Source: Oscillospiraceae bacterium (lineage in GTDB: Bacteria > Bacillota > Clostridia > Oscillospirales > Ruminococcaceae). From it: a DNA stretch of 64,000 bases. Where the stretch lies: contig WQXO01000001.1 of NCBI GenBank assembly GCA_009784825.1, positions 1,599-65,598 on the forward strand, read 5' to 3'. The position numbers were made by a program, and so were the translations under genes. Within the stretch, counting starts at the first letter, position 1. Each line of letters begins with the position of its first letter. The notes below the pieces were generated by a model, which worked only from the letters and a program-made list of their open reading frames with translations, did no database searches and had not been told where the DNA came from. Below, in pieces: positions 6,539-50,893 of this stretch.

Positions 6539-6539
6539 A

Positions 6540-8927: not shown

Positions 8928-9036
8928 AATAATTTCATAGTGTCAGCAAGTTGCATACCTTTTTCTGTATTAAATAGTTTATAATGACTTTGTGTCCCTT
9001 GTAAGCTTTCTAATACAAAACGGAGGAAAACACTAA

Positions 9037-27544: not shown

Positions 27545-28746
27545 CAGGGAAATGTTTAATAATCGGGGCAGGCGGTGTGGCAGGGGTTGCCGTTCATAAG
27601 TGCTGCCAAAACAGTGAAGTGTTTAAGGAAATCATGATTGCCTCCCGCACTAAGTCAAAGTGCGACGCCCTTAAAAATCAGTTACAGGGGAAAACATCGA
27701 CAATTATTCACACTGCACAGGTTGACGCAGATAATGTCGATGAAGTAATCACATTAATAAACTCGTTCAAGCCTGATGTGGTTTTGAACCTTGCACTGCC
27801 TTATCAGGATTTGTCAATTATGGAGGCTTGCCTTGCTACAAAAACACACTATGTCGATACTGCGAATTATGAACCGCTTGACACTGCGAAGTTCGAGTAT
27901 AAGTGGCAGTGGGCATATCGGGAGCGGTTTAAGGAGGCAGGAATAACCGCATTACTCGGGAGCGGGTTTGACCCGGGTGTTACAGGGGTTTTCTGTGCTT
28001 ATGCAATGAAACACTATTTCGACGAGATTCACTATATTGATATTCTCGACTGTAACGGCGGCGACCACGGTTATCCGTTTGCGACGAATTTTAACCCGGA
28101 GATTAACATTCGTGAGGTTTCGGCAAAAGGTAAATATTGGGAGAACGGTAAATGGGTTGAAACTGAGCCTATGGAAATTAAGCGGGAGTATGACTTTGAG
28201 GGAGTGGGCATGAAAGACATATACCTGCTTTATCATGAGGAACTCGAGTCGTTGGCTCAAAATATTAAGGGAATTAAGAGAATAAGGTTTTTCATGACGT
28301 TTGGGCAGAGTTATCTGACACATTTGAAGTGCCTTGAAAATGTTGGTATGACTTCAATTGAACCCGTGATGTTCCAAGGGAATGAAATAGTCCCCATTCA
28401 GTTTTTGGCGGCGGTTCTACCCGACCCTGCTTCATTAGGCCCGAGAACCCACGGTAAAACTAACATCGGCTGTATAATACAGGGGGTTAAGGATAACAAA
28501 CCCGTCACCTATTATGTTTATAACATATGCGACCATCAGGAGTGTTACAAGGAAGTCGGCTCGCAGGCTATATCGTATACTACCGGCGTTCCGGCGATGA
28601 TTGGTGCTATGTTAATTATGCAAGGTGTTTGGGATAAAGCGGGGGTATTCAATATTGAGGAGTTTGACCCCGACCCGTTCATGGAAGCACTGAACAAGTG
28701 GGGATTACCGTGGCAGGAGTGTTTTGACCCGAAGTTAGTGGATTAA
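27541..28746 (+). CDS. saccharopine dehydrogenase-family protein, carboxynorspermidine synthase-like
   Basis: 401 aa. N-terminal IIGAGGVAGV NAD(P) motif. Length and overall pattern fit the family as I recall it. Confidence 0.7.
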   Translation: MTGKCLIIGAGGVAGVAVHKCCQNSEVFKEIMIASRTKSKCDALKNQLQGKTSTIIHTAQVDADNVDEVITLINSFKPDVVLNLALPYQDLSIMEACLATKTHYVDTANYEPLDTAKFEYKWQWAYRERFKEAGITALLGSGFDPGVTGVFCAYAMKHYFDEIHYIDILDCNGGDHGYPFATNFNPEINIREVSAKGKYWENGKWVETEPMEIKREYDFEGVGMKDIYLLYHEELESLAQNIKGIKRIRFFMTFGQSYLTHLKCLENVGMTSIEPVMFQGNEIVPIQFLAAVLPDPASLGPRTHGKTNIGCIIQGVKDNKPVTYYVYNICDHQECYKEVGSQAISYTTGVPAMIGAMLIMQGVWDKAGVFNIEEFDPDPFMEALNKWGLPWQECFDPKLVD

Positions 28747-28762
28747 TATACAGTTATACAAA

Positions 28763-28791
28763 ACAGCCTTTACTTTTTACGGTAAAGGCTG
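28763..28791. terminator. bidirectional hairpin terminator between convergent genes
   Basis: CAGCCTTTAC .. GTAAAGGCTG. Confidence 0.65.
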
Positions 28792-28801
28792 TAAATTATT
28801 T

Positions 28802-28840
28802 AATTGTCAATTGTCAACTGTACATTGTCAATTGTTCGTC
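28802..28840. repeat. five tandem AATTGTC-type heptamers + CGTC (copy A)
   Basis: aattgtc aattgtc aactgta cattgtc aattgtt cgtc. 34/39 identical (ungapped) to 57959-57997. Confidence 0.85.
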
Positions 28841-30104
28841 ACCCTACTATTCCCGACCTTTCAATACCCTCTACGAAATACTTCTGCAGGAAGATATACA
28901 TTAACAATATCGGGGCGATTGACATTAGACACCCTGCCTGCACCCACACAATATACTGGGTAGGCCCTCCTACCTGCCGCCCCTCATTCAGGAACGCTGA
29001 CATAGACCTCCACAGGTTCTCCACAGCTAATGCAATTGTGTTGGAATCGTTGAAGAACATTCCCGATACATAACTGTCGTTCCAGTACCACACCACCGAG
29101 AAAATGAATACCGTTAAGTAAGACACTAATGCGTTGGGTATCATAATCCTTACGAAAGTTGAAACGGGCCCGCAACCGTCAAGGTGAGCGGCATCTTCTA
29201 ATTCCTTAGGCAGTCCTCTGAAGAATTGCCTGAACAGCAGAATAAACAATCCCGCTCTTATTCCGTTGCAGAAGAACGCCTGCATAAACAACGCCACGGG
29301 CTTGTCAACCAAATTAAGCGGTTCACCGTTAATCAAGGTAAATATACCGAGAATGTCGAAAAATCTGAAGTTTACATACAGCGGGATAAGCAAAATCTGG
29401 ATAGGCACAATCATTTGAAGAATTACTATTCCGAACAGCAACCCCCTGCCTCTGAACTTAAACCTTGCAAAGCCGTATCCCGTTATTGAGCAGGTAATAA
29501 CCTGAATAATCGAGCAACCGACGTTAATAAACAAGGTTTGCGTAAAAACAGACGTAAAGTTCATCGCAACAAAGGTTTCTCTAAAGTTCTCGAACCTAAA
29601 GGTTTTGGGAATCCACATGATTGACGGGTCTGCCGTGTCCGCTTGCGGTTTAACCGAGGAGGTCAGCATGTACAGTATCGGATACAGGATAATGAACGAA
29701 AGCCCGATTAACAATACATAATGGAAGAAAGGCCATACCGCTTCGGCTATTCTTCTGCCGAAGATATAGCGGTAGTGCTTTTTCTCCTCTTCGGAATAAG
29801 AACGGAAATTCTTGAGGATTTGCACGTTTGAAACGTGATATTTCTTGCGAATTTCCTTGTTCTTTTTGTCAATCGCCTTTTGCTCTTTTCGGGTAAGCGC
29901 CTCTTTTGGCATACCCATGTCGAAGTCCGCCGCTTTGCGAACCTCTTTTGTTTCCTCGACGATTTCTACTACTGTTTCTTCGGCGGTTTCTGCTACTGCT
30001 TCTTCCTGCGGAACATCAACAACTTCTTCTTGCGGGACGTTGTGGGCAACGTCCCCTACGGTTGTTTCCGCAGCTTTAATCTCGACTTTTTTCTTTTTAG
30101 CCAT
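28839..30104 (-). CDS. MalG-type ABC permease with a ~110-aa charged N-terminal extension
   Basis: EAA-loop ELEDAAHLDGCGPVSTFVRIMIPNA. Six predicted TM helices. N-terminal E/V/K-rich segment. Confidence 0.8.
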   Translation of the reverse strand: MAKKKKVEIKAAETTVGDVAHNVPQEEVVDVPQEEAVAETAEETVVEIVEETKEVRKAADFDMGMPKEALTRKEQKAIDKKNKEIRKKYHVSNVQILKNFRSYSEEEKKHYRYIFGRRIAEAVWPFFHYVLLIGLSFIILYPILYMLTSSVKPQADTADPSIMWIPKTFRFENFRETFVAMNFTSVFTQTLFINVGCSIIQVITCSITGYGFARFKFRGRGLLFGIVILQMIVPIQILLIPLYVNFRFFDILGIFTLINGEPLNLVDKPVALFMQAFFCNGIRAGLFILLFRQFFRGLPKELEDAAHLDGCGPVSTFVRIMIPNALVSYLTVFIFSVVWYWNDSYVSGMFFNDSNTIALAVENLWRSMSAFLNEGRQVGGPTQYIVWVQAGCLMSIAPILLMYIFLQKYFVEGIERSGIVG

Positions 30105-30116
30105 TATATTACCTCA

Positions 30117-31502
30117 TCAATCTACTTGGTAGAATACAAATTTTGATACAATCGCCACAATTATCGCCAATGCCAATGCAATAATCACGAAATAAATCCA
30201 CGCTATTGCCGAACTGTACCCATACTTCAGCCCTCGAGCATTTACCATAACCAATTTCATAACAGGGTTCTGCGAATCACTGAAGTTATCGATAACAGTG
30301 TATATCAAATTGGCCAATATCATCGGACTTATCGTGGGGAAGGTGATTTTCCAGAAGAACTCCCACCCTGTTGCCCCCTCCATTGAAGCAGCTTCCTTAG
30401 CTGATACGGGGATTTGTTGTAATGCGGCGAGGAATATCAATATCTGTATTCCCGATTTCCATATAAGGTTAAATATATCACTGGTGGTTTCCGACACAAA
30501 TGTGGTGAACTCCTCGCTTATGTTATATAATCCTAAGAAACGCATAAACCCGTCAACTAAGTCGGTTTTGAACAATGTCGAAAACTGTGCCGCACCTCCG
30601 CTCGCCCCCTGCGACATAATGTCACCGTTGATTACTGCGATTACGGGACCTGTCGCAATCAACACGGGGAGGAAGAAAATCGCTCTCATGAATGCACGCC
30701 CCTTGAACTTCTGGTTCAACAGAATGGCTATAAACAAGCTCAGCACTAATATTAATGAAACATTCGGTAACATTCCCCACAGCGACGCCGCTAAATCTGT
30801 AATATAATCCGGGTCGGTCAAAAAAGCATATTTGTAATGCTCGAAGTCGTTCCATTCCAAATGGATACCGGGGGCTGTCATTCCGTATTCCTCAACACGG
30901 TTAGCGTCAACCAGAGTTGTGGTGTTAAAGGAATAGTTAAGCGATTGTGCTAACGGCATTAAGAACATATACAGAACGCCTACCGCCCATAATGCAATAA
31001 ACCCATACCCGTAAAGCCGCTTTTTCCGCTCATACGAAAGGCGGCTTCCCGACGAGCTTTCGATAACCCTCCGCCGGCTCGAAACCTCACGCTCAAGCTC
31101 GTCATTCTTCTTCTTTGCGTAATATTCAATATCAGCTTTCATCGATTCGTCGGACGTTTTCTTCAATTCCTTTTCGACATAAGCTTTTATTTTCCTACGC
31201 TCCTTGTCAGCACGTTTATCGAGTGCTTTGAGCTTTTTCTCGATATAGATTTTACGTTTTGCCGCAATTTTTTCTAACTTTATTCGTTCGAGTTCTTTTT
31301 CCTTGGCGATTTCCTCGGGAGTTTTTTCCTTGATTTTCTTAGGGTTCAACAGCCTCGGGTCATCACTTTCTGCGGCAACCTTCTTTGCATCTTCTTGGTC
31401 TGCTTTTAAAACAGGCTCTTCCTGTATTGTTTCAGGAACTTTTTCTTCAATCGGCGGTACTTCAGATACATTGTCCGCTGTCTTTTTTTTCTTATCCGGC
31501 AT
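30117..31502 (-). CDS. MalF-type ABC permease with a ~165-aa K/E-rich N-terminal extension
   Basis: EAA-loop AKEAASMEGATGWEFFWKITFPTISP. The N-terminus is low-complexity K/E coiled-coil-like. Overlaps the upstream gene by 11 nt. Confidence 0.8.
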   Translation of the reverse strand: MPDKKKKTADNVSEVPPIEEKVPETIQEEPVLKADQEDAKKVAAESDDPRLLNPKKIKEKTPEEIAKEKELERIKLEKIAAKRKIYIEKKLKALDKRADKERRKIKAYVEKELKKTSDESMKADIEYYAKKKNDELEREVSSRRRVIESSSGSRLSYERKKRLYGYGFIALWAVGVLYMFLMPLAQSLNYSFNTTTLVDANRVEEYGMTAPGIHLEWNDFEHYKYAFLTDPDYITDLAASLWGMLPNVSLILVLSLFIAILLNQKFKGRAFMRAIFFLPVLIATGPVIAVINGDIMSQGASGGAAQFSTLFKTDLVDGFMRFLGLYNISEEFTTFVSETTSDIFNLIWKSGIQILIFLAALQQIPVSAKEAASMEGATGWEFFWKITFPTISPMILANLIYTVIDNFSDSQNPVMKLVMVNARGLKYGYSSAIAWIYFVIIALALAIIVAIVSKFVFYQVD

Positions 31503-34185
31503 ATGAAGCCCTCCTGTTCAACCCGTATTCTCCGAAATCAATTGTTTGCCCGTTTACCCTCAGCTCGCCTGTGTCGATGTTTACATAGATTGTTTTCCCG
31601 CCCTCGAACGTGGTTTCGGTTTCGTAAACCGATATTCGCTTGTGGTCGATTATTCGCTTATCTGAAACATCTGCAATCACAAACTTAAACAACTCGTATT
31701 CTTTTACCGATTTTTCAACCCAGCCCGTGTAGTTAGCATAGAACTTTCTGTTATACTCACTTGCAGTGAACTCGCTCGGGTTGGTGTGCATAAAATCATA
31801 ATGTAATGGTGTTCCTGTTGACAGTGCAAGCAGCCTTAACGTGTCGGAGTCTGCACTGGCGTTGAACGCTTTGGTGGAATGCGGGATTAACCCGTGAATT
31901 ACAATTTGATAAAGCGGAATGTCATAATCGAATATATCGTAATTAGACGAGAACAGGGGCACTTGAATAATTTCATCGACATACGGCAGAGCGTAGGCGT
32001 TAGCAGACTGTGCTAAAATTGTAATCCCTGCATCGTTGAGTTTTTGATACCCCTCTGTCAAAATCTGAACCGTGTCTCTTCTATTGTAATACATTCCGCC
32101 GTATGGGTTTCTCCTTGAAAAATCGCTGTATAATAAGCTGGTTGCACGGTCAAGCGAGATGGAGGTTATTCCCTCAGCGTTAAACGATTTTATTAATCTT
32201 TCAAAAACATCGTTAAAATAGTGCGGTGATAAAATAGTCCATGAATCCTGCAGTTTATCCACTGTTCCGAAAGCATATTCATATTTCTCCTGTGAAGCGT
32301 ATGCTCTTGTCACCTGTTTTGAGGAATTAAGCAAATACGAGTATCCGTTACCGGACTTGAAGTATTCCATCATATTAACACTCGGATACAGGGAATACCC
32401 GTTTTCAACTATAAAATCGTTGAACTTTTTATAATCGCTCTTCCCTCCCAGTCGGCTTGAATACTGCACCGTCGGTGTTATTTCCCGCTTTATTCCCGCT
32501 GTGTTAAAATCAATATAGGTAATGATTAAGTCTTCTGCACCGATTTCTTTGAGCATTTGTGCAATTTCCAACGCTTCTGCATATGTTGTTGCCGTGGATT
32601 GTAAATCAACCGGGAAACCTAATATCGAGTGGGTTTTAACTGTTCCGCCGTTTAATGTGAGATAATATGGTGAGGAATTGGGTTTAGATTTATTTTGCAA
32701 TCCCTTATATTCTATAAGGTATTCCCGATAGGTGTTGCCTACATCTACATAAGACAGATTTTCACCGGACAACAGGTAATACCTAACTGCTATATCGCCT
32801 GTTTTAATTCCTCCCTGCTCAAATATAGTAAGCTCGGAATTTCGAGTTCCTATGTAGTAAGAGTCGGTTGTCCGTGTTCTAAACTCAAACCATGCCGCAT
32901 TATAGGTGGTTGCGTTTTGGCGGGAAACATTCGCTCTTATGAAAGCGTTTTCGTCACCTTTTTCTGCAATTGCCACAAGGACGTTATCGCCAAGCTCTGC
33001 GTTTTTACGAACTATACCGAACATGGGGAAGAACACCTGCTCAATGACCGGCGGGGCGAGTTTTTGTGAAACAGCCAAATCCCTCCCGTAAACCTGCCCG
33101 TTATACAAAGCGGCGTTGGTTTTTTGGTTGTCGAATTCGATTACCGCACCCGAACCGTCGGGGACTACTATATACCCGTCTTCTCCTTCGGGTGCTGCTC
33201 CGAAGCTGTTCAGCACAGACATTGAAAGCATTAAACTGCCCGATTCGGTAAGAATATCAGTTTCGTTAATTTTATCTACCGGTACTAATACGTATAGGCT
33301 GTTACCGTCAAGCGTAACCTCCATAACCGATTTTAAAACTGTTATATTTCTTCTTTTAAAGTTAAAGTGGAAACGGACACCGTTTTCAATTTTCTCAATT
33401 TTTTCACAAGCGGAAACATAAATGTCGTCATTCAAAAAACCTTTTTCCCGAGTGTTTGAGCGGACATTTGCGGTAGTATATGATACCGGGTTTCCCGACA
33501 CCCATGTAAACATGGAGGATAAGTTATCTACCTGTGCCCCTTTAGCTACCGAGTCGTGCGTTGCATTAATGGGGGATGACCACCATATAAATCCGTTGGC
33601 CTTGTTGCGTACGCCGAACATAATATCTTGTTTTGTTTTTTCACGCTGTAATCTGATTATAACTTGATAAAACTGCACTTCGCCGTCTTCGTATATGAGT
33701 CTGCCGCTTTGGTTAGCCTCGTAGACTAATGCTCCGCTTTCGTCAAACGGGATTGAAACAGGCACAAACTCGCCACGCTCAACTTCGATGTTTACTTCAT
33801 ATGATACCGGCTTACCGCTCCCGTCTAATATAAACTTACCGTCTCTCTTATTCGGGGCAAAGTTCAGCTCACCCTCTTCGTTAAAGGCGAAATTGTTATT
33901 TTCGTCAACGGGAATATTAACCTCATGTGCGTCTGTCGTAATATAATCATAGGTGTCGACAACCCAAAGCTCGAAAAACTCGTTCTCGGCGTAAAGCTCT
34001 GCCAAGTCAAGCATTTCGTCTTCTGTTCGGCGGGGAACGTCGGTGCGAATGTCTTCCTCCGGCTCTTCCTCAACCAAGATTTCGTCGTTTTCACCGTCCT
34101 CGGCAAAAAGCGACTGCTGTCCGAATGAAACTGCCAACACCCCTATCAGAAACGCAGTTATTAACTTGTTTTTTAATTTAAGCAT
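31492..34185 (-). CDS. large secreted protein of unknown function (resembles DUF5696-type proteins as I recall them; unverified)
   Basis: 897 aa. Signal peptide MLKLKNKLITAFLIGVLAVSFGQQSLFA. GGAGGG SD. Confidence 0.5.
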   Translation of the reverse strand: MLKLKNKLITAFLIGVLAVSFGQQSLFAEDGENDEILVEEEPEEDIRTDVPRRTEDEMLDLAELYAENEFFELWVVDTYDYITTDAHEVNIPVDENNNFAFNEEGELNFAPNKRDGKFILDGSGKPVSYEVNIEVERGEFVPVSIPFDESGALVYEANQSGRLIYEDGEVQFYQVIIRLQREKTKQDIMFGVRNKANGFIWWSSPINATHDSVAKGAQVDNLSSMFTWVSGNPVSYTTANVRSNTREKGFLNDDIYVSACEKIEKIENGVRFHFNFKRRNITVLKSVMEVTLDGNSLYVLVPVDKINETDILTESGSLMLSMSVLNSFGAAPEGEDGYIVVPDGSGAVIEFDNQKTNAALYNGQVYGRDLAVSQKLAPPVIEQVFFPMFGIVRKNAELGDNVLVAIAEKGDENAFIRANVSRQNATTYNAAWFEFRTRTTDSYYIGTRNSELTIFEQGGIKTGDIAVRYYLLSGENLSYVDVGNTYREYLIEYKGLQNKSKPNSSPYYLTLNGGTVKTHSILGFPVDLQSTATTYAEALEIAQMLKEIGAEDLIITYIDFNTAGIKREITPTVQYSSRLGGKSDYKKFNDFIVENGYSLYPSVNMMEYFKSGNGYSYLLNSSKQVTRAYASQEKYEYAFGTVDKLQDSWTILSPHYFNDVFERLIKSFNAEGITSISLDRATSLLYSDFSRRNPYGGMYYNRRDTVQILTEGYQKLNDAGITILAQSANAYALPYVDEIIQVPLFSSNYDIFDYDIPLYQIVIHGLIPHSTKAFNASADSDTLRLLALSTGTPLHYDFMHTNPSEFTASEYNRKFYANYTGWVEKSVKEYELFKFVIADVSDKRIIDHKRISVYETETTFEGGKTIYVNIDTGELRVNGQTIDFGEYGLNRRASYAG

Positions 34186-34224
34186 ATTCCCTCCATTAGC
34201 GGGCAGATATGGAATCCGCCCCTA

Positions 34225-34860
34225 CTAAGATATTCTATATAGAACTTCTGTGTAAATCGTGTATAAAAATACGAAAATCTGTTGAAACAACGCAACAAGC
34301 AAAATTACAATAAACAGCATAATTACCATTGCCACAACGGTGAACACCATAGCCAGCAGCGTCTTCGGTACAGAATACTGGTGAACCGCTTTCATTGCCG
34401 CCGTCATCAAAATGAACGACCACCCGATTCCGAGGTACATGATAAACCACACGAAACCTCTCTCCGTCCATAAAAGAACATTGGTTGCCGCTGTGTTAAT
34501 CGCCATAGAAGCGATATAGGGGATTAGGGCATACGCACTCACAACGCATATGTTTCGCATTGAACCTTCCCCGTTGAACAATGTACACAGTGACCAGTTG
34601 CCGACCACCCATACAAAGAACAGCAGAATTGTTGAGGAGAAATACGGAACCACATTAAAAACCCGAACATATGCGGTATTGTATATAAACCCCGTCATAA
34701 TGCTTTCACACACAGTCACGATGAAAAACAACAACACGATTATCAATGCGACTTTCATGTTATAGCCTTTTTTCCACCTTAAATCCTCAAATCCCTCTAA
34801 CGGATGCTTGAGAATATAGAACGGCCACTTCCACGCCGGTAGATTTAAATCATAAACCAT
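34225..34860 (-). CDS. Yip1-like polytopic membrane protein
   Basis: 211 aa with about 5 TM helices. The topology and size fit the family; the assignment is tentative. Confidence 0.5.
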   Translation of the reverse strand: MVYDLNLPAWKWPFYILKHPLEGFEDLRWKKGYNMKVALIIVLLFFIVTVCESIMTGFIYNTAYVRVFNVVPYFSSTILLFFVWVVGNWSLCTLFNGEGSMRNICVVSAYALIPYIASMAINTAATNVLLWTERGFVWFIMYLGIGWSFILMTAAMKAVHQYSVPKTLLAMVFTVVAMVIMLFIVILLVALFQQIFVFLYTIYTEVLYRIS

Positions 34861-34866
34861 TGTGAT

Positions 34867-36438
34867 TTATCCTTTCGATGATGTATCTGCTTTAGCCTTT
34901 TTCTTTTTGCGGTATTTCATAAATATATTTAATCCGACGGCAAGCACTGTTACCGTGATTGCTATTGCTGTAAATGCGTCAAAGTTCTTTCGGATATAGT
35001 CTATTCGGAAGTCCTTAAACGCCCTGTTGTATCCGCCTCTCGAGTGCATGTAGAAATATGAGAGAGATTCTTCAAACTCACCGAGACTTAACATGGCGTT
35101 GCCCATTCCGATATAAGCCATGTAATAGTTGGCGTCACGCCTTAAGATTTCTTCCCACGGTTCTTTTGCTTCCGCATATAAACCTCTGTTAAACAGCTCC
35201 ATCGCTTCGTTGACAAGCTCGCCGAATTCCGTGAGTTTATAAACAGTCAGCGAGTTTTTAACACTGTCTAATATATACACTTTTTCGTCGTGGGTTTCAA
35301 TGGCTGACGGAGTGTTAAACAAACCTTTTTGTTCGCCTTTTCCGCCGAATATGAACATCAGTGAACCCTCATAATCATACTGGAAGATTTTACCCGAACG
35401 GAAATCCATTAAGAAAATATTCCCTTTATCGTCCACAGAAACATCAATAATTGAGGAACGATAACTGATACCATTCACATATGGTGTGTGGAAAGCACCC
35501 CATATCATCTCGTCATAGCCCTGCTGTTCAAATACATTTCTGCCTGCCGGGTCAAGTTTTTTCAAAACGTCTAAGCGGGCACTCCTCGCTTCGGTTACTG
35601 TGTAAATAAATCCGTCATTGTCAATCGTGAAGTTCGAGAACTCTACAGGAACGGGACGCACACGCTGTTCCATCTGTTCGGGGGTGAGGATATATTTCAA
35701 GAAATAGTTCAGCATGGCATTGAAGTTACGCTCAACTCTGTTAGCACCATAGTATCCGCTGAACGAGCCGCCCTCTTCAAACATGACTGCTCCCCGTGTA
35801 ATTGATTTGATACATATATACACGTTTCCGGCATTGTCGGCGACAACCTTCTTGGGATGGAACGTGACTGCCTGGTCATACAGGTGTGATGCCGGGCGGG
35901 TATATTCCATCCAGATTTTCCATTCACTGTCTACATCATCTCTATAACAAGCGATAACTCTTCCGTTGTCGTGGTCGGCGATATAAAGCCGTGTTTCCCC
36001 CCGCATGTTCATAACGTGAATTCCCTGCGGGCGGTTAAGCGTTGTTTTTGTTCCGATTTTCTGCGGGTCAAGCCGATAATTCTCACCGTATTCAAACACA
36101 CTTTGAACCTTTGTATTTTCTTTGTTAAAGCTATAATCGGTGATGACTATTCTGTTGTTGCCCGAATCGACAATGAACACTTCTCCCGTGTTGGGATAAA
36201 TGAACACGTCTGCCGGGTTTCTCAAACCTCCGGCAAGCCCCAAGTCTGCTCCGGTCACAACTCTGTCAACTATATAACCGTTTTGGGCGGGAATTGTTTC
36301 CCACCACCAGTCATAGTCAAAGGCGATATACGGTTCATCTGCCACTGACGTCATCGTAAACCCGACGACAATTACGGCAATGAGAAAAACCGCCATAAAC
36401 CTCGCTATCTTCTTTTTATTAATTCGCAGATTTTGCAT
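34867..36438 (-). CDS. membrane-tethered NHL-type beta-propeller protein with a TPR segment
   Basis: N-terminal signal anchor. About six blades with the G..NRI/GRV pattern (FIVDSGNNRIVITD, YIADHDNGRVIAC, ..). TPR-like YMAYIGMGNAMLSLGEFEESL. C-terminal TM helix plus a K-rich tail. Confidence 0.6.
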   Translation of the reverse strand: MQNLRINKKKIARFMAVFLIAVIVVGFTMTSVADEPYIAFDYDWWWETIPAQNGYIVDRVVTGADLGLAGGLRNPADVFIYPNTGEVFIVDSGNNRIVITDYSFNKENTKVQSVFEYGENYRLDPQKIGTKTTLNRPQGIHVMNMRGETRLYIADHDNGRVIACYRDDVDSEWKIWMEYTRPASHLYDQAVTFHPKKVVADNAGNVYICIKSITRGAVMFEEGGSFSGYYGANRVERNFNAMLNYFLKYILTPEQMEQRVRPVPVEFSNFTIDNDGFIYTVTEARSARLDVLKKLDPAGRNVFEQQGYDEMIWGAFHTPYVNGISYRSSIIDVSVDDKGNIFLMDFRSGKIFQYDYEGSLMFIFGGKGEQKGLFNTPSAIETHDEKVYILDSVKNSLTVYKLTEFGELVNEAMELFNRGLYAEAKEPWEEILRRDANYYMAYIGMGNAMLSLGEFEESLSYFYMHSRGGYNRAFKDFRIDYIRKNFDAFTAIAITVTVLAVGLNIFMKYRKKKKAKADTSSKG

Positions 36439-36451
36439 AGTTTCCTCCCGC

Positions 36452-37315
36452 TTAATCTTTTAATCCCGATTGTGCCATGGTTTCTAATACGTTACTTTGA
36501 CAGAATATAAACAATATCATTGGCGGGGTCATAATAAACACTGTTGCCGCCGCCGCAACCCCCATCCTCGCTAACCCCGAGGCACCGATTTGCGACATAA
36601 CCGTCGGCAAGGTTTTGAGAGCTTCATTATATATATAGTTGCTTCCGGTTATCTGCCACGCTCCCGTGAATGCGAAAATCAGAAGCGTTATCCAAGCGGG
36701 TTTGACGTTCGGCATAACTATCTGCCAGCAAATTTTCACGTGACCCGCCCCGTCTAACTGGGCTGCTTCTATCATTGAGTCGTGGATTTGCCCCATAAAC
36801 TGCCTCATAAAGAATATTGACAGCGGTGTCGCAATAAACGGCAGAGTGATTGCGAAATAGGTGTTAATCATTCCGAGCCTTGCCAAAACCATATAAACCA
36901 TGATACCGGTTACGGTGGATTGGAAAAGCAGTGAAATTTCAATTATTTTATTAAGTGCCTTTATTCCGGGGACTTTAACTTTTGCCAATATGTATGCCGC
37001 AGAGGAGGCAAACAGCAATTGTGACACAGTAACAACAACGGTTACGAATATTGAGTTAAAGAAATATCTCGAAAACGGCACCCACATGTTACCTGCCGCT
37101 TGAAACAGTTCAATAAAATTCTGGTTTGTCGGACGCATGGCGTACATCTTCGGCGGGAAAATGAAGAACTCCTCCACCGGCTTAATCGACTGAATAACAG
37201 ACAGATATATGGGGAACATCATGAACACTCCCACTCCTGCCAGCAGAATAAATATCATTATATCGCCGCCCACCGAGCCGCTGTATTTCTTCCGTCTTCT
37301 TGGTATTAATTTCAT
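36452..37315 (-). CDS. MalG-type carbohydrate ABC permease
   Basis: EAA-loop IEAAQLDGAGHVKICWQIVMPNVKPA. Confidence 0.85.
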   Translation of the reverse strand: MKLIPRRRKKYSGSVGGDIMIFILLAGVGVFMMFPIYLSVIQSIKPVEEFFIFPPKMYAMRPTNQNFIELFQAAGNMWVPFSRYFFNSIFVTVVVTVSQLLFASSAAYILAKVKVPGIKALNKIIEISLLFQSTVTGIMVYMVLARLGMINTYFAITLPFIATPLSIFFMRQFMGQIHDSMIEAAQLDGAGHVKICWQIVMPNVKPAWITLLIFAFTGAWQITGSNYIYNEALKTLPTVMSQIGASGLARMGVAAAATVFIMTPPMILFIFCQSNVLETMAQSGLKD

Positions 37316-37327
37316 ACTTTATCTCCC

Positions 37328-38308
37328 CTACCCGTCTAAGTATTTTCCGAGAATTTTCTTTATCCCCCAGTTAGCAAGCAACATCGATAAAAACAGGATA
37401 AAGCAGATTGCCGAGGCATAGCCCATTTCAAAACGCACAGCTCCATAGTCGTGTGCATGGTTCATAATCGAGTGGGCTCGATAGTCGGTTGTGGGGAATG
37501 CTGTCAACCAAAGCGAAACATGTCCCGCCGCAAACGATGCTGTGATTTGCATAACTGCCGCGAACAGCAATTGCGGTCCCATCGCCGGAATAGTAATGTG
37601 CAAGAGTTCTTGAGCCCTGCTCTTTATTCCCTCAATCGCACCCGCTTCGTACCTTTCTGCGGGGATTCCCTGAAACCCTGCACGAATGGCAAGGAAGCCC
37701 GCTCCCAACGCCATCCAAATCTGAACGACTATAACAACACCCATAATCAGATTACCGTCTGTCAGCCACTGCTGGGCACCGTTAATTATTCCTAAGTTCA
37801 CCAACCACGCATTTAATATTCCGTAAGCGTCTCCCGAGAAAATCAACTGCCATGTGGTATAAATATTTCCTGAAAGTGTCGGAGCGTAGAACACAAAAGT
37901 AAATACAGTTTTGAAATGCCCGGGAAGCTGGTTAATAAACCACGCCAATAAGAAACATGACGCATAACTCAGCGGACCTGTAATAAACGCAAATACTAAT
38001 GTGTTTTGGATGGAAATCAAGAAGACCTCGTCCTCCAAAAGTAAGGTATAAAAGTTGTTAAAACCCACCCACTTTGGGAACGTAACCATATTAAAGTTCG
38101 TAAACCCCATAGGCAAAGCCATGGTTACGGGGATAAACGTCATTACCAAAAACAACAGGAAATACGGTGCAAGCATTAAATATGCACTTTTGTTTCTCCC
38201 CATTTCCCTTACGGTATATCGAAAACGGCTGTCCTCGATGTTTTTCATCGGTTTTAAGTTTTTACCCTTGTCGGGAATCATTTCTTTTTTATCGGCAACT
38301 TTTTCCAA
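37328..38308 (-). CDS. MalF-type carbohydrate ABC permease
   Basis: EAA-loop ERYEAGAIEGIKSRAQELLHITIPAMGP. TTG start preceded by GGGAGGAAA. Confidence 0.8.
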   Translation of the reverse strand: MEKVADKKEMIPDKGKNLKPMKNIEDSRFRYTVREMGRNKSAYLMLAPYFLLFLVMTFIPVTMALPMGFTNFNMVTFPKWVGFNNFYTLLLEDEVFLISIQNTLVFAFITGPLSYASCFLLAWFINQLPGHFKTVFTFVFYAPTLSGNIYTTWQLIFSGDAYGILNAWLVNLGIINGAQQWLTDGNLIMGVVIVVQIWMALGAGFLAIRAGFQGIPAERYEAGAIEGIKSRAQELLHITIPAMGPQLLFAAVMQITASFAAGHVSLWLTAFPTTDYRAHSIMNHAHDYGAVRFEMGYASAICFILFLSMLLANWGIKKILGKYLDG

Positions 38309-38359
38309 GGATATTTCCTCCCTTGATAAATTTTGTGGTTAATACTTCGTTATATCCGG

Positions 38360-41335
38360 CTAACCGTAATGTGATGCAAGCTCTTCGTTTTTACGTGTTA
38401 TTTCTGCATTTATATCTCGGTCATAGCTGTTTATAGCGTATCTCGGCAGCCAGTTATCGTTTACCACTGCCCTGAATGCGTTTTTAACGTGTCGTGTCGC
38501 CGCATAGTTTGCAGGTATCATCGGAATTTCAATCAAAGCATCTCTCTGTTGAGCCAATTTCCGATATTCCACCTCTGACCATGAAAGGTTTCCGAGGGCT
38601 TCGAGGTTCGCAGTGTCAAAACGCCCCAACGGTCCTAACATAGCCTCCATCATTTGACCGAACCTTACCTGTGTGTCGGTGCTGGTGAACCATTTAATAA
38701 ACTCCCACGCCAACTCTTTGTCCTTGGCTTTGTCGAATATAATCGCACCCCACGCCGCACTCGATGCCGCATAATTGATATATTCTTCGCCCTGTTCATT
38801 AATTCTCTTTGTACCCGGAACATGGGTGAAGTCCCATAATCCTTTCAGCTCGGGAGCGGCGGCACTTACTTGGTTGAAGAAGTTATACGGTTGAATGACT
38901 ATCGGCATTTCGCCTGTTCTGAAACGTGTAAACGGGTCATACCACTGTTCAAACTTATAAACGGTATAGAACTTCGTCCACATAGTAAACGCTGAAATGC
39001 TTGCTTCGGTGTCAAATGTGGTGCGTGACAGGTCTTCCGTGTAGAAGTTCTGCCCTGTTTGAAGCTGTAACAATGTAAAGGTTTCGCCCGGCTCAAATAT
39101 TGTGCTGGACAAGTTTGTAGCGGGAGGAACTAATCCGATTTCAAGATACGCTCTGTTAAGAACGCCGATTGCTATTATAAAATCATCCCATGTTTCCGGC
39201 GGCTCAAGATTTAAGTCTTCTAAAATATCCGTTCGGTAGAACATCATCGGGAACTGCTGTGAAACAGGCAAACCGTACACCCCGCCCCGATACGTAAAGA
39301 AAGTAGGCAGGTTGGGTGCAAATCGAGTCGCCACCTCCTCATAATCCGGGAATTGCGTTAAATCAACGGTTAACTGTCGTGCGGCAAGCTGAACCGGGAA
39401 GTCACCTCCTACAAACAACGCAACCTCGGGGCCCTTTCCTGCAAGCGTAGCCTCCAAAATCGAGCCTTGAACAAGGTTAATCGCAACAGGCGTATCCTCA
39501 TTTTTAATATTAAAGTCGTTATCCACCATTGTTTTAACTGCTAACGCCTGGTCACGACCTAAGCAGACCCACACGTTTAACCCGCCCTCGTCGGTAAGCC
39601 GGGTATAATCTTCAAAGAATGAACCAATAAACCCTCTCCACTGGAACGCCATTTCCTCCCAGAAATTGGGCTTGGCTTTTCCGACGGTTTCATGAACGGT
39701 TAAAATTTCGATATAATCCAATTCCAACGGCTGGTATGACTTTTCCCTCATCCATGCTGAAATGGCAATAATGTTATCTTTTATCGTTTTATGCATTTGC
39801 GGAATTCTGTCGGGTTTGTCAACACATCTTTGCAATATAACTGCCATTGTCTGAAGTGTTGACGCCTCCGAACCGCGAATGGAATATTTTTCGATGTTTT
39901 CTTTTTCTAAAAGAAGCTGCTCGATTAAATGCTCGAAAATCGGAATAAGCTCGGGAATTTGCTTTTCCACATAATACATGTTAAACTCATCGGGGTTTGG
40001 CCCTGTTATCATGAGAATACGACGATAGTAATAGTTCAGCAAAAACAGAACATTCTCCATTCTCTGCATGGTTTCGCCGATTTCCCCCGGAACAGCCTCC
40101 ACTGTAATTGTGTGTGTTCCCCTTGTAAGGAATATGTATATATCCTCCCCCTCTTCATCGTGGAAGGTCTGTTGATACCACCTTATTTGGTACGGAAATT
40201 TTTGACAGTTAAATTCCTCAACGGGGACTTCACCGTTAATGTAGATTCGGCGGTTGGAATAGAACCCCCTCAGCATATTTTGTTTCACTTTTGCTGAAAT
40301 GCGGTAATACCCGTCTGCGGGGACGCTGAATTCCCATGTGGCTGATTGCCCTGATTTTGCCCATGACTCATTGCCACCCATAGTGTTATACCGCATTTTT
40401 ACGGGGTGGCTCGGGCTGACTAAATATGTTCCCCTGTCGTATGTGGGGACTAATTCTGACGATGTTTTATAGAGCGGGGTCTGTCCTTGTAATATAATGG
40501 TTTTTGAACCGATTTCGTTCTGCCATTCCGAATCTGCGAAAAGAGGAGGGGTGGCATAAAGCTGTTCCTGTGTCGGTTTAATATCGGCATAGGGGACTAA
40601 ATCGGGATAATTCTTAAAAGTCATGGATTTAAACACTGTCCCCACTTTTATGCCCTCTAATGTTATAGTGTTGGTTCCTTTTTCAAGATAGAAGAAATAC
40701 GGCTCGTTGAACAGCCCCTCTTTATCCTTAACGGGGTAATGAATCCATTTTTCATGTTCTACTTGAAGCGGGAGAAGCTCGTTATCTCTTTTATCTTTTT
40801 CAATAGTGTTTGCGTTTTTCCATAAACGGTCAAGCTCTATGTTTTTAGCGGCGGAGAACGGATATTCCCCGTTAATCATTATACCAACGTCAACGGTGTT
40901 GTTTCTTTTAGGGAGCGGTCTGTAATAAAACTCTAAGTTATATATCCCGGCAACCTCAACCTCGAAGATATATTCCACCATACCAAGGTCGTTTTCCCAA
41001 TAAAGGCAGCTTCTTTCAGCGGCATAATCATCAACTCTCAACGAAGGAAGTTCTCCGAAAACCTTGTCTCCGGAAACCCCGTCATAATCTTTCATTTCTA
41101 TGTATATCACTTCATCGGGGCGGTTGTCCCTCCCCTCACTTTTAATGTTGGCGAGATAATACTGGTACAGGTCTTCTCGTGTGCTTCCCCCCATTATGCC
41201 GAGGTTTACACCCTCTCTATCGGTTGCGGTGTTTTCATCCTGCTGAGCGAACCCCGGGAATGTAAATCCCGTAGCCAACATAATTCCGGATAAAACTATA
41301 CCTGCCGCTTTTTTGTAAAACCGCTCAATTCTCAT
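38360..41335 (-). CDS. 991-aa extracellular solute-binding protein with a ~550-aa N-terminal extension (two CBM-like beta-sandwich modules)
   Basis: Signal peptide. The C-terminal ~420 aa have family-1 SBP character. The start overlaps the stop of the upstream ATPase gene (ATGA). Confidence 0.65.
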   Translation of the reverse strand: MRIERFYKKAAGIVLSGIMLATGFTFPGFAQQDENTATDREGVNLGIMGGSTREDLYQYYLANIKSEGRDNRPDEVIYIEMKDYDGVSGDKVFGELPSLRVDDYAAERSCLYWENDLGMVEYIFEVEVAGIYNLEFYYRPLPKRNNTVDVGIMINGEYPFSAAKNIELDRLWKNANTIEKDKRDNELLPLQVEHEKWIHYPVKDKEGLFNEPYFFYLEKGTNTITLEGIKVGTVFKSMTFKNYPDLVPYADIKPTQEQLYATPPLFADSEWQNEIGSKTIILQGQTPLYKTSSELVPTYDRGTYLVSPSHPVKMRYNTMGGNESWAKSGQSATWEFSVPADGYYRISAKVKQNMLRGFYSNRRIYINGEVPVEEFNCQKFPYQIRWYQQTFHDEEGEDIYIFLTRGTHTITVEAVPGEIGETMQRMENVLFLLNYYYRRILMITGPNPDEFNMYYVEKQIPELIPIFEHLIEQLLLEKENIEKYSIRGSEASTLQTMAVILQRCVDKPDRIPQMHKTIKDNIIAISAWMREKSYQPLELDYIEILTVHETVGKAKPNFWEEMAFQWRGFIGSFFEDYTRLTDEGGLNVWVCLGRDQALAVKTMVDNDFNIKNEDTPVAINLVQGSILEATLAGKGPEVALFVGGDFPVQLAARQLTVDLTQFPDYEEVATRFAPNLPTFFTYRGGVYGLPVSQQFPMMFYRTDILEDLNLEPPETWDDFIIAIGVLNRAYLEIGLVPPATNLSSTIFEPGETFTLLQLQTGQNFYTEDLSRTTFDTEASISAFTMWTKFYTVYKFEQWYDPFTRFRTGEMPIVIQPYNFFNQVSAAAPELKGLWDFTHVPGTKRINEQGEEYINYAASSAAWGAIIFDKAKDKELAWEFIKWFTSTDTQVRFGQMMEAMLGPLGRFDTANLEALGNLSWSEVEYRKLAQQRDALIEIPMIPANYAATRHVKNAFRAVVNDNWLPRYAINSYDRDINAEITRKNEELASHYG

Positions 41336-42279
41336 AATTTATTCTCCTGTTTTGGTAATATAACAATTTTCTCGTTTTCTAATTCAACTTTTACCTTGTC
41401 GCCGCCTTTAATGCCTAACGCTGTAAGATATTCTTTCGGGATTTGCAACCGCCCCGCTCGGTCAAGAACCACTAATTCCTCGTGATGCGTTTCTGTCTGT
41501 TGGGGGGAGGTCAACCCGCCCGTTTTTCCTGCTAATTCTTCAAGCGAAACAACGTCTATGTTCTTACGAATGAATTCCGACGATGTTTTCCCGTCACGAA
41601 TGGCGACCACACGGTCAATTTCTTTTGAAAGGTTTATGTCGTGGGTTACTATAATAATAGTAACGCCTGTTTTTTTGTTTAGTGTTCTGAACGCTTCGAG
41701 GACGTTTTTGGCGGTTTTCGAGTCCACCGAGCCTGTCGGCTCATCTGCAAGGAGCAGCTTCGGATTTCCCGATAACGCAATCGCTATTGCTACTCTTTGT
41801 TGTTCCCCGCCCGAAAGCTGTCCGGGATATGCGTCCTTTCGGTGAGTCAGCTCTACTAATTCTAAAAGCTCCTCCGCTCGCCGCCGTCTGTTTTTAAATC
41901 CGGAAAGCAGTAACGGCATTTCTACGTTTTGAAGTGCAGTTAAATAAGGGATTAGGTTTCTTGCCGAGTTTTGCCACACAAACCCCACCGTTGAACGCTT
42001 ATATTCGGTTAATTCCGCTTCGCCGAATTTCAGCATGTCATGTCCGTCAATAAATAAAGCACCCGCTGACGGTTTGTCTAATCCGCCGAGTAAATTCAAA
42101 AGCGTTGATTTTCCCGAACCGGACGAGCCGATTATGCCCATAACCTCACCACGGTTCACGGTTAAGTCTAACCCTTGTAACGCCATGACCTCGACGCCTT
42201 TTTTCTTATATATCTTAACTAAGTTATCGCACCTGACCATAATGTGTTCCGGAGGTGCAAGCAACACTTGTTTCGGCAT
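41332..42279 (-). CDS. LolD/MacB-type ABC ATPase fused to a C-terminal SpoVT/AbrB-like domain
   Basis: Walker A GSSGSGKST, signature LSGGEQQRVAIA, Walker B LLLADEPT. C-terminal RLQIPKEYLTALGIKGGDKVKVELENEKIVILP. GGAG lies 6 nt upstream of the ATG at 42279. Confidence 0.8.
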   Translation of the reverse strand: MPKQVLLAPPEHIMVRCDNLVKIYKKKGVEVMALQGLDLTVNRGEVMGIIGSSGSGKSTLLNLLGGLDKPSAGALFIDGHDMLKFGEAELTEYKRSTVGFVWQNSARNLIPYLTALQNVEMPLLLSGFKNRRRRAEELLELVELTHRKDAYPGQLSGGEQQRVAIAIALSGNPKLLLADEPTGSVDSKTAKNVLEAFRTLNKKTGVTIIIVTHDINLSKEIDRVVAIRDGKTSSEFIRKNIDVVSLEELAGKTGGLTSPQQTETHHEELVVLDRAGRLQIPKEYLTALGIKGGDKVKVELENEKIVILPKQENKL

Positions 42280-42393
42280 TATGAACTCCAATTAATAATT
42301 AATAGTTAATAATTAATAATTTTTGTGTCGCCTGCGGCGACGAGTTTAAATAAAATCTTTGCGTATGCAAATGCCATAATTATTCATTATTAA

Positions 42394-43068
42394 TTATTCT
42401 TTGTTAATTATTATTCCGTCTTCAAGAGTATATGTAACATTCGCAGATTCCATCATTGCTTCGTCGTGGGTGGTCATTATAATTGTATGCTTGTGTTCGC
42501 TGTCTTTTACTAAATCCCGAAAAAGTTTCATCACTGCTAACCCGGTAACGGTATCAAGCTCTGCTGTAGGCTCGTCTGCGAAAATCAACTTAGGCTCATG
42601 GCAGATTGCTCTTGCTATTGCTACTCTTTGCTGTTCACCGCCCGACAACTCTGCGGGGACGTGCTTCATTCGTTTTTCCAGCCCCACTCTTGCGAGGCAC
42701 TCTTTAGCTCGTTTTGACCTATTCTTTGCGGGAACATTCGCCAGTCTTAGGGCAAGCTCCACGTTTTCTAACGCTGTCATGCTCCCGATTAAAGCAACCG
42801 ACTGGAACACAAACGCCATTTCGCTTCTTCTGAGCTTGTCTTTTTTTATTTGAGAATAAGCGGTAATATCCTCACCGCCGAATGTGACAATACCCTCTGT
42901 AGGGGAATCCAACGCTCCGAGAATATTAATTAGCGTTGTTTTTCCCGAGCCGCTCCTCCCTCTCAAACAAACCAACTCACCCTCGTTAACATCAAGGTTT
43001 ATTCCCGAAAGAGCTTTAACGCTCCCGAATTCTTTTGTTATATTCCGTGCGGTTAACAAAACAGCCAT
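42394..43068 (-). CDS. LolD/MacB-type ABC ATPase
   Basis: Walker A GRSGSGKTT, LSGGEQQRVAIA, LIFADEPT. Own TTGACA-N17-TATACT promoter at about 43100-43135. Confidence 0.85.
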   Translation of the reverse strand: MAVLLTARNITKEFGSVKALSGINLDVNEGELVCLRGRSGSGKTTLINILGALDSPTEGIVTFGGEDITAYSQIKKDKLRRSEMAFVFQSVALIGSMTALENVELALRLANVPAKNRSKRAKECLARVGLEKRMKHVPAELSGGEQQRVAIARAICHEPKLIFADEPTAELDTVTGLAVMKLFRDLVKDSEHKHTIIMTTHDEAMMESANVTYTLEDGIIINKE

Positions 43069-43176
43069 TGATTCTCCTGCCGAATTTTTACATAATGTTT
43101 ACATAAGTATAACAATTATGTCATGCTTTGTCAATATGTATGAAAACGATTTCAAAATATTGTAAAAAAATACCAA

Positions 43177-44658: not shown

Positions 44659-44674
44659 AACTCAGCCTCTCTTT

Positions 44675-46168: not shown

Positions 46169-46256
46169 AAAATTATACCTCTAATAGTTTTTAACTCCCC
46201 CGGCGAAGCCGGGCGTGCGTCCGCAGTAGTTTGCAACAAACTACGTTGCTCTGCGG

Positions 46257-47726: not shown

Positions 47727-47830
47727 AAAAATTTCCTCCCGTATTACCTTAATTTTAGGTTAATTAAATATATAATAACATAATAACTAAGAAAAGTAAA
47801 CAAAAATTTTAAAATTTATATAAAAATTTT

Positions 47831-47858
47831 AGGGATTGTCATAAAATTGACAATCCCT
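47831..47858. terminator. perfect hairpin terminator
   Basis: AGGGATTGTCA TAAAAT TGACAATCCCT. Confidence 0.7.
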
Positions 47859-47879
47859 GTTTTCTTTCCGAGCGATTTC

Positions 47880-48557
47880 TTAATAAAATTTCATGGTTTG
47901 AAAAGCCCCGTAAGTATAAGCCGCAGGCAGGGCAACCGACAAAACAGCCATTAATATGTCGATGGGCGTACCGCTCAAGGAGGTTAAAAGGCTAAACCCG
48001 CCTAATGCTAACATTATTATTCCGAGAACAAGGCATTTTTTCGCACCGTCACCGTCCTCATGATATTTTATTCCCATAAATCCCGCAACAACTCTAAATG
48101 CCACATTTGCAATGCCGATAAATGCAATAATCATTGCAAACCCTCTCATACCTGCACCCATAGCACCGTCAAACTCGCTGAACAAAGCGAAAATAACGAT
48201 TAAAGCCGGAATTAACACTATCAAATCAATAACAGCGAAAACCAGCATAACGCCGCCTGCGATTTTAAGAATGCTTTTTTCACTTTTGCCTTTTTTCGCA
48301 AAATAATCTTCAAGTGCCTGACTGCCTGTTGTGTTGGGTTGGTCAAACGAGGTTGGTTGGTTAAACGAATTAGATTGTGCGGGATAATTGGGTTGCCCGG
48401 GTTGAGCGAACCCCATTCCGTCCGACATGGGTGTCTGTGTCGGATATTCGTATTGTTGCTGAGGTTGAGCGGGCGGGGGTGCTTGCTGGAGAACCCCGCA
48501 TATAGGGCAATACCCGTTTTCGTTTAGTTTTGACCCGCAGGTCGCACAATATTTCAT
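47880..48557 (-). CDS. zinc-ribbon membrane protein with a P/Q-rich linker
   Basis: N-terminal CATCG..N9..CPICG zinc ribbon, a Q/P-rich spacer, and about four TM helices. Confidence 0.6.
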   Translation of the reverse strand: MKYCATCGSKLNENGYCPICGVLQQAPPPAQPQQQYEYPTQTPMSDGMGFAQPGQPNYPAQSNSFNQPTSFDQPNTTGSQALEDYFAKKGKSEKSILKIAGGVMLVFAVIDLIVLIPALIVIFALFSEFDGAMGAGMRGFAMIIAFIGIANVAFRVVAGFMGIKYHEDGDGAKKCLVLGIIMLALGGFSLLTSLSGTPIDILMAVLSVALPAAYTYGAFQTMKFY

Positions 48558-48585
48558 GGTTTTATCCCTCTTCTTTAGTTCTTTG

Positions 48586-50004: not shown

Positions 50005-50041
50005 TGATAGTTCCTCCTAAATAAAGTGATTTGTTTTATAT

Positions 50042-50659: not shown

Positions 50660-50893
50660 TGAGCTCACCACCTTTCGTTCTTGTGTAAAATTTGTGTAAA
50701 TTTTATTTACCACCGTTTAAATTATAACAATGTTTTCATATAAAGTCAATATGTTTCTTGAAATTTAGCAATGTTCACATAAGACAAGCGTTCTATTTGT
50801 AAAATATATATAAATTTTGAAAAAGCTATTGCTTTTTATCGAATTAGATGATACACTTTATGTAAATTGAATTTACTGAACAGAGGTGAATAT

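Follow-up and report, generated by a model that had tools for sequence, protein, structure and literature searches.

How is energy supplied to an apparent glycan importer whose permeases resemble those of one type of ATP-binding cassette (ABC) transporter and whose neighbouring ATPases resemble those of another? The question is raised by a locus in the metagenome-assembled genome of an Oscillospiraceae bacterium (GenBank assembly GCA_009784825.1, contig WQXO01000001.1) within a stretch of 64,000 nucleotides, which is here called the window and to which all coordinates refer. From 43068 down to 28839 ten genes follow each other on the minus strand: two ATPase genes (ATP2 and ATP1) and then the genes of a large extracellular binding protein, a first permease pair (A1 and A2), an NHL-TPR protein, a Yip1-family protein, a DUF5696 protein and a second permease pair (B1 and B2). 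A first-pass annotation, made from the nucleotide letters, had described an atypical ABC supercluster of nine tightly packed genes with a second ATPase gene upstream of them. This layout is reproduced by the open reading frame calls and by the Pfam and NCBIfam matches, as is the claimed spacing with intergenic gaps of 6–51 nt and two overlaps. We find that the eight genes behind the ATPases form a conserved module whose products likely act as a machine for the capture, cleavage and import of a glycan, and we tentatively consider the two ATPases as its possible motor.

The conserved unit comprises the eight genes from the binding protein to B2 in the order given above. With the window's proteins as tblastn queries the same order was recovered in 66 of 66 complete genome loci; it is likewise present in the loci L001–L005, L086 and L087, which include loci found via exact protein look-up, and no related locus of sufficient length departs from it. 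When one genome per GTDB species was scanned with an alignment of DUF5696 proteins, relatives were detected in at least 532 species genomes, mostly metagenome-assembled genomes (MAGs) of gut Oscillospiraceae and Ruminococcus, whereas a scan with the single DUF5696 sequence found nothing. The best 80 of these genomes are all MAGs labelled Oscillospiraceae, ‘Ruminiclostridium sp.’ or Ruminococcus, recovered from the guts of termites, ruminants, rabbits, mice and humans. The gene-neighbourhood profiling proposed in the first-pass annotation, run across the related loci, therefore reveals a cluster conserved as a unit and substantiates the belief expressed there that similar gene sets occur unannotated in other gut Clostridia. 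The genes flanking the module differ between lineages and mostly have housekeeping functions; because the internal order is fixed while the flanks are unrelated, the module has to be regarded as self-contained. One DUF5696 cluster of the Ruminococcus clade, P0330 (L086), accounts for 912 listed blocks of the assembly collection, with contigs reaching 609 kb; one or more of the gut organisms that carry the module must therefore be very common. Downstream of its module, the L086 locus also contains LytR_cpsA_psr, glycoside hydrolase family 25 (GH25) and GH5 genes. Two MAGs labelled ‘Bacteroides sp.’ (L031) and ‘Sodaliphilus sp.’ (L041) carry the full module with proteins 43–73% identical to those of the window; this range resembles that of the Ruminiclostridium-labelled MAGs, and the two labels most likely reflect binning errors rather than transfer.

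The extracellular binding protein (991 aa, 38360..41335) begins with a hydrophobic helix, which is followed in the AlphaFold2 model (predicted local distance difference test, pLDDT, 74) by two β-sandwich modules (residues ca. 77–241 and 280–414), a helical bundle (418–532) and a MalE-like family-1 domain (ca. 537–990). The MalE-like domain is documented by Pfam matches to SBP_bac_1 and SBP_bac_8, by a profile match to Lin1841 in the Protein Data Bank (PDB) at 4e-19 and by Foldseek TM-scores of 0.73–0.81 to oligosaccharide-binding proteins, among which sophoro-, cycloisomalto- and cello-oligosaccharide binders are nearest. As to the two carbohydrate-binding modules (CBMs) postulated earlier, both β-sandwiches are present in the model, and their identity as CBMs is suggested by weak matches to CBM_35 in 13 of 28 homologues (E down to 2.7e-6), next to which 23 of the 28 weakly match Golvesin_C. 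The Foldseek search with the full model was dominated by the MalE-like domain, so that its matches refer to this domain rather than to the N-terminal modules. A lipobox cysteine is found neither in the N-terminus of the protein (41242–41335) nor in the consensus of the 28-sequence alignment. In a monoderm lineage, candidates for retaining the protein at the surface are the uncleaved N-terminal helix or docking of the helical bundle.

The first-pass annotation had also read the membrane subunits as two MalF/MalG-type pairs, the second with long charged N-termini, and Pfam and NCBIfam matches, hydropathy and EAA loops all agree with this reading. Permease A1 (326 aa, 37328..38308, start codon approximate) is MalF/UgpA-like with six transmembrane helices and the EAA loop EAGAIEGIKSRAQELLHITIP; it is the only permease not matched by PF00528 (BPD_transp_1) or any other Pfam family, and its assignment is based on weak UgpA/MalF matches in NCBIfam, on hydropathy and on the conserved EAA loop. 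Permease A2 (36452..37315), assigned by Pfam and NCBIfam, hydropathy and EAA conservation, is MalG/UgpE-like and carries the loop EAAQLDGAGHVKICWQIVMP. In the second pair, B1 (30117..31502) has a MalF-like core with the loop EAASMEGATGWEFFWKITFP and is extended at its N-terminus by a charged, cytoplasmic stretch of ca. 165 aa, and B2 (28839..30104) is MalG/GlcU-like with the loop DAAHLDGCGPVSTFVRIMIP and a charged N-terminal extension of ca. 130 aa. The EAA coupling loops are canonical, intact and conserved in all four proteins. The two pairs are only 23–26% identical to each other; across loci, the permeases share 55–83% identity with those of the window.

The DUF5696 protein (897 aa, 31492..34185) possesses an N-terminal signal or anchor and matches Pfam family PF18952 at 1e-145. 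Its AlphaFold2 model, computed from an alignment of 22 sequences (pLDDT 77.7, predicted TM-score 0.80), consists of an N-terminal β-sandwich, a (β/α)8 barrel and a C-terminal β-sandwich. In Foldseek the best matches are 5opq, 8rzk and 5wzn, followed by members of GH101, GH36 and GH31; the similarity reaches an E-value of 1.5e-28 for ZgGH129 (5opq) and a TM-score of 0.71 for NagBb (5wzn), and over GH129 and GH101 structures the E-values span 1e-28 to 1e-17 with TM-scores of up to 0.72 on the target, at a sequence identity of only 9–14%. The catalytic domains of GH129 and GH101 are known to resemble each other (PMC8106489). On the basis of the predicted GH129/GH101-like fold we regard DUF5696 as a candidate new glycosidase family. 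Of the acidic residues in the barrel region, Asp688 and Asp755 are invariant and Asp750 and Asp753 nearly so, which fits a glycan-related role. At the sequence level the assignment has no counterpart: the 22 members match PF18952 only and no GH family, with no GH129 or GH101 match at E-values up to 10. The PDB profile match of DUF5696 is weak and covers only ca. 40 N-terminal residues, with none over the barrel. In the literature searched we found no paper naming DUF5696 or PF18952.

Two further membrane-associated proteins are encoded between the permease pairs. In the NHL-TPR protein (523 aa, 34867..36438) a signal or anchor at the N-terminus precedes a six-blade NHL β-propeller and TPR repeats, and a transmembrane anchor with a basic tail forms the C-terminus; the bulk of the protein is predicted from hydropathy to be extracellular. 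Its description as a membrane-tethered six-blade propeller with TPR repeats was borne out by a Pfam match to NHL and by the PDB profile search, which matched the designed six-blade propeller Pizza6 in 4–6 stretches, the PknD sensor and TRIM NHL domains, as well as a consensus TPR at profile positions 403–453. The adjacent polytopic protein (211 aa, 34225..34860) has ca. five transmembrane helices according to hydropathy, was rightly recognized as Yip1-like, as Pfam places it in the Yip1 family, and is 41–72% identical across loci. In the YknWXYZ system, which includes a MacB-type ABC ATPase, a Yip1-family protein is an accessory of YknXYZ with a role in assembly (PMC4887032). The literature searched contained nothing relevant on Yip1 proteins together with ABC transporters in Ruminococcus.

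The two ATPases are of a different provenance than expected for MalFG-type permeases. ATP2 (224 aa, 42394..43068) is a short ABC ATPase of the LolD/MacB/FtsE lineage; ATP1 (315 aa, 41332..42279) belongs to the LolD/MacB lineage and ends in a SpoVT/AbrB-type (MazE-like) swapped-hairpin domain. Its start is most likely the ATG at 42279, since GGAG lies 6 nt upstream and the 315-aa NCBI product MCL2632911.1 agrees. Both proteins, which are complete in their catalytic motifs and 44% identical to each other, match ABC_tran, and the C-terminus of ATP1 additionally matches MazE_antitoxin. The top NCBIfam models are LolD (231 bits for ATP1), bacteriocin exporter, DevA, FtsE and MacB, all below their curated equivalog cut-offs, and neither MalK/UgpC models among the best 25 NCBIfam matches nor MalK chains among the best 60 PDB matches were found. 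The earlier assignment to the LolD/MacB lineage rather than the MalK/MsmK type is thereby confirmed. Among solved structures, the best match of ATP1 is OppD of the Mycobacterium tuberculosis OppABCD complex, followed by MJ0796, LolD, DppD, MacB and MetN. OppD drives the same permease fold as that found here and MetN is also close; as the LolD/MacB sequence neighbourhood thus also contains motors of BPD_transp_1-fold importers, the label ‘atypical’ is overstated.

Among ATP1 orthologues the AbrB-like tail is highly conserved with the motif VVLDRAGRLQIPKEYLxALGIKGGDKVxVEL, and it is reached by the alignment in ca. 45 of the 150 best ATP1 representatives at the 50% identity level. We found no report of an AbrB/SpoVT-type C-terminal domain on an ABC ATPase in the literature searched. 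In related loci ATP1 is always accompanied by ATP2, and the relatives of ATP1 include single chains of ca. 550–610 aa with two ATPase domains (P0363, P0365 and P0366), in which the first half includes the region aligned with the AbrB tail, while the second half and the ATP2 of the window share 38% identity. Such fused chains fit an ATP1/ATP2 heterodimer, which is also plausible because the membrane subunits are themselves heterodimeric.

The genomic distribution of the ATPase pair is less uniform than that of the module. ATP2 and ATP1 lie directly upstream of the module in 47 of the 66 complete genome loci. When metagenome contigs were scanned with an ATP1 alignment and the best 80 loci were examined, the pair was followed by the module in 47 of them, while 16 of the 80 have enough downstream DNA and no module; in several of the latter a double-FtsX permease (800–970 aa) adjoins the pair, usually preceded by an HlyD-type adaptor of ca. 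350 aa. Counting the shorter loci as well, 15 metagenome pairs are FtsX-linked and seven are orphans among housekeeping genes. The four-gene system of adaptor, double-FtsX permease, ATP2 and AbrB-tailed ATPase was observed in environmental metagenomes (L114, L117, L118 at 5228–10930, L125, L139, L149, L158, L159 and others); in L158 and L159 the adaptor and double-FtsX genes are placed between the two ATPase genes, and in L141 the adaptor and FtsX genes are 9 kb away from the pair. A quick neighbour-joining tree of 108 distinct ATP1 sequences (midpoint root, no bootstrap) shows two module-linked clades and one FtsX-linked or orphan clade, which are unmixed. In module-linked clade II the DUF5696 protein is only 31–33% identical to that of the window, and the gene series starts with ATP2, next to a divergent neighbour. 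The AbrB-like tail occurs in module-linked and FtsX-linked ATP1 alike. A difference between module loci with and without the pair was noticed in the N-terminal extensions of B1 and B2, which are long where ATPases are adjacent (for B1 a median of 92 aa before the first transmembrane helix) and short where they are not (a median of 23 aa), a trend that has exceptions (L001 and L085), is confounded by phylogeny and does not cover clade II, whose loci are too short. The charged extensions of B1 and B2 are possible docking elements for the unusual ATPases or a mere reflection of phylogeny.

Consistent with these data we propose a scenario in which gut Oscillospiraceae and Ruminococcaceae use the eight core proteins to build a surface apparatus on their single membrane. 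Kept at the membrane via its N-terminal helix or its helical bundle, the binding protein would grip a glycan with its CBM35-like modules, and the secreted or anchored DUF5696 enzyme with its predicted GH129/GH101-like fold would cut it. The released oligosaccharide would be captured by the MalE-like domain and handed over to the permeases for uptake via one or both of the CUT1-type heterodimers A1A2 and B1B2, while the NHL-TPR and Yip1 proteins might serve as a scaffold tying the extracellular components to the permeases. In this respect, the composite glycan machine suggested by the first-pass annotation is supported in part, as a conserved unit with glycan-related parts. We consider it quite possible, though short of probable, that ATP1 and ATP2, recruited from the MacB/LolD lineage, act as a heterodimer that energises the MalFG-type permeases. 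The pair and the module adjoin with tight junctions in two deep ATP1 clades while the other flanks are shuffled, ATP2 comes first behind a divergent or unrelated gene, and the module itself otherwise contains no ATPase gene. Moreover, the proximity of OppD and MetN to ATP1 implies that this ATPase neighbourhood can serve the BPD_transp_1 fold, and the Yip1 accessory of YknWXYZ likewise accompanies a MacB-type ATPase. The C-terminal domains of MalK and MetN dimerise, and the AbrB-like tail of ATP1 might do likewise or be regulatory. In its most far-reaching version, which we judge unlikely, one ATPase family would drive double-FtsX/adaptor (type VII) systems in environmental Firmicutes-like genomes and MalFG (type I) importers in gut Oscillospiraceae, and all ten gut proteins would assemble into one supercomplex, in which the AbrB domains, Yip1 and NHL-TPR connect two importers that the CBM-bearing binding protein and the GH129-like enzyme feed.

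The coupling of ATP1 and ATP2 to the permeases has to be weighed against a scenario in which the module imports a glycan with an MsmK-type ATPase acting in trans, and the pair is the motor of a double-FtsX/HlyD-adaptor, MacB-type system encoded elsewhere, its adjacency to the module being due to co-regulation or inherited synteny. Several observations point in this direction and away from the proposed coupling. In Firmicutes, CUT1 operons typically come without an ATPase gene and depend on a shared MsmK from another locus. The upstream pair is missing in 19 of the 66 complete loci, of which ca. 11 offer at least 2 kb of upstream sequence, so that its absence there is real; among the latter are all loci of the Ruminococcus clade as well as L001 and L009, two close relatives in which the window's upstream 493-aa gene is kept with the binding-protein gene directly next to it. 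Sister-clade ATPases, 56–66% identical to ATP1, reside in HlyD-adaptor/double-FtsX operons, of which the 15 loci above are examples, or are orphans, and the existence of orphan pairs indicates that the ATPases can be unlinked from their membrane partner. The region of the Q-loop and helical subdomain, through which the ATPases touch their membrane partner, is alike in module-linked and FtsX-linked proteins (VGFVWQNNARNLIPYLTAxxNVExP in ATP1, FVFQSxALIxxMTAYENVEF in ATP2), with few and mostly conservative differences between the classes (V/I and T/S among them), and therefore lends no support to a switch of partner. The EAA loops of all four permeases are canonical and MalF/MalG-like and equally alike with and without adjacent ATPases, and for that reason are not informative on the pairing. 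However, the adjacency retained in two deep clades despite shuffled flanks, with tight or overlapping junctions, is not easily reconciled with an FtsX partner elsewhere, and ATPases alone of an unrelated system would be odd companions in a shared transcript. With three double-FtsX proteins as queries, tblastn matched neither the window nor any DUF5696 locus; adaptor matches were likewise absent from the window and the module loci, and neither gene occurs in the 10 kb beyond the window's high end. In roughly 100 related module loci there is no other ATPase and no FtsX gene within ca. 10 kb, in line with the earlier statement that the cluster lacks an FtsX/MacB-type permease. Within the best 80 metagenome loci, none of those from human-gut assemblies is FtsX-linked; each either adjoins the module or ends too early for a decision. 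Both sets of observations are compatible with either reading, and we regard an FtsX partner elsewhere as somewhat unlikely.

The glycan need not be a nutrient. The module could remodel, recycle or assemble the cell's own surface glycopolymer, such as wall polysaccharide, capsule or S-layer glycan, with DUF5696 trimming or transglycosylating it and the permeases recovering fragments or unconventionally exporting precursors. A Pfam census of 148 flanking proteins revealed no enrichment of sugar regulators, catabolic enzymes or CAZymes, hence no substrate clue, which speaks against nutrient import and is compatible with such a role, as are the high conservation of the permeases, as in a core function, and occasional wall-related neighbours like LytR_cpsA_psr and GH25 in L086. 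The binding protein has no lipobox, and its helical bundle could dock on envelope parts; GH31 and GH13, related glycosidase families, include transglycosylases. Yet no wall-related neighbour is conserved, the similarity of the binding domain is to nutrient oligosaccharide binders, the hosts belong to fibre- or glycan-degrading gut lineages, and binding-protein-dependent BPD_transp_1 systems are known solely as importers. A function on the cell's own glycopolymer thus appears distinctly unlikely. Finally, the same-strand genes might be unrelated and juxtaposed by chance, a view to which one could concede that the promoter and terminator calls are merely consensus matches; it is contradicted by the synteny data, as more than 100 loci agree in gene order and orientation, even where DUF5696 identity falls to 31–35% and although the flanks are unrelated, and we reject it as scarcely credible.

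Comparison with characterized systems places the import reading in perspective. CUT1 importers (MalEFGK2, UgpBAEC and MsmEFGK; class 3.A.1.1 in the Transporter Classification) share the heterodimeric BPD_transp_1 permeases with EAA loops and the family-1 MalE-like binding domain. They differ in that the adjacent ATPases of the present locus are not MalK/MsmK-type and lack a TOBE domain, in place of which ATP1 has the AbrB-like C-terminus, that two permease pairs face one binding protein with ca. 535 extra N-terminal residues and no lipobox, and that NHL-TPR, Yip1 and DUF5696 genes are interleaved with the permease genes. The MacB, LolCDE and FtsEX (type VII) systems are related through the ATPases, whose highest-scoring models are LolD, MacB, FtsE and the bacteriocin exporter and whose sister clade is found in adaptor/double-FtsX operons; here, however, the membrane subunits adopt the type I importer fold, and no FtsX permease or HlyD adaptor accompanies them in the window or near module loci. 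YknWXYZ of Bacillus likewise combines a Yip1 protein with MacB-type ATPases, but its FtsX permease and adaptor have no counterpart here. With Opp/Dpp the locus shares two different ATPases next to heterodimeric permeases of the BPD_transp_1 fold, and the AbrB-like tail of ATP1 has a parallel in the C-terminal regulatory domain of MetN, although the permeases are CUT1-like and not of the PepT or MetI type. The predicted three-domain fold of DUF5696 corresponds best to the GH129 and GH101 enzymes NagBb, ZgGH129, EngBF and SpGH101, from which DUF5696 is set apart by the lack of a family sequence match and by a gene embedded in a transporter operon. The module may be described as a variant of the CUT1-type importer whose accessories are without precedent and whose motor may be borrowed.

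The arrangement of the locus is compatible with a common transcript. A sigma-70-type promoter-like site (43106..43134, minus strand) with TTGACA, a spacer of 17 nt and a TG-extended TATACT is located 38 nt upstream of the ATP2 gene; with 11 of 12 consensus matches it is the best-scoring site in 28000–47900 and matches, by consensus only, the promoter claimed for this gene in the first-pass annotation. The ATG of ATP2 at 43068 is preceded by the ribosome-binding site AGGAG. The ATP1 and binding-protein genes overlap by 4 nt (ATGA), and the DUF5696 and B1 genes by 11 nt. Behind the B2 gene, at a distance of 47 nt, a bidirectional terminator-like hairpin (28763..28792, minus strand) with a stem of 11–12 bp is followed by a T-run. 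The ATPase genes of the window are separated by an AT-rich spacer of 114 nt (42280..42393, minus strand) with the short GC hairpin GTCGCC-GCA-GGCGAC, unlike those of relatives, which abut or overlap (by 16 nt in L003 and 8 nt in L116). An Rfam scan of 28000–48000, including this spacer, yielded no match and thus no riboswitch or leader. From these features we infer that the module and the two ATPases of the window are co-transcribed from one promoter.

Upstream of the cluster, 43177–47726 (minus strand) contains three genes, whose products are a very acidic repeat protein (489 aa), an HSP70/actin-like ATPase (497 aa) and a protein of 493 aa that matches no family and includes a Cys-rich stretch. 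These genes may form a transcript of their own, given promoter-like sites and a hairpin near 47830–47860, and a PADLOC scan gave no defence-system match for them. In the nearest relatives (L001, L006, L007 and L009) the module retains synteny with the 493-aa gene, and in L001 also with the HSP70-like gene. Further upstream (47880–50713, minus strand) follow a zinc-ribbon/transmembrane protein (225 aa) and, as judged by eye, a flotillin-like protein (472 aa) and an NfeD-like membrane protein (223 aa), which look like a membrane-microdomain set unrelated to the module.

The module is widespread, with its signature family in at least 532 species genomes and unnamed in the literature searched, and therefore marks a large blind spot in our view of glycan handling by gut Firmicutes. 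It provides several leads, namely the candidate glycosidase family DUF5696, the CBM-like binding protein and the fixed NHL-TPR and Yip1 accessories, which occur in no described ABC importer. The locus may, in addition, record a rare swap of an ABC motor between the FtsX/MacB and MalFG transporter types. If true, the pairing of ATP1 and ATP2 with the permeases of the module would demonstrate that ABC motor domains are exchangeable between these architectures and would bear on how the coupling between motor and membrane subunits has evolved.

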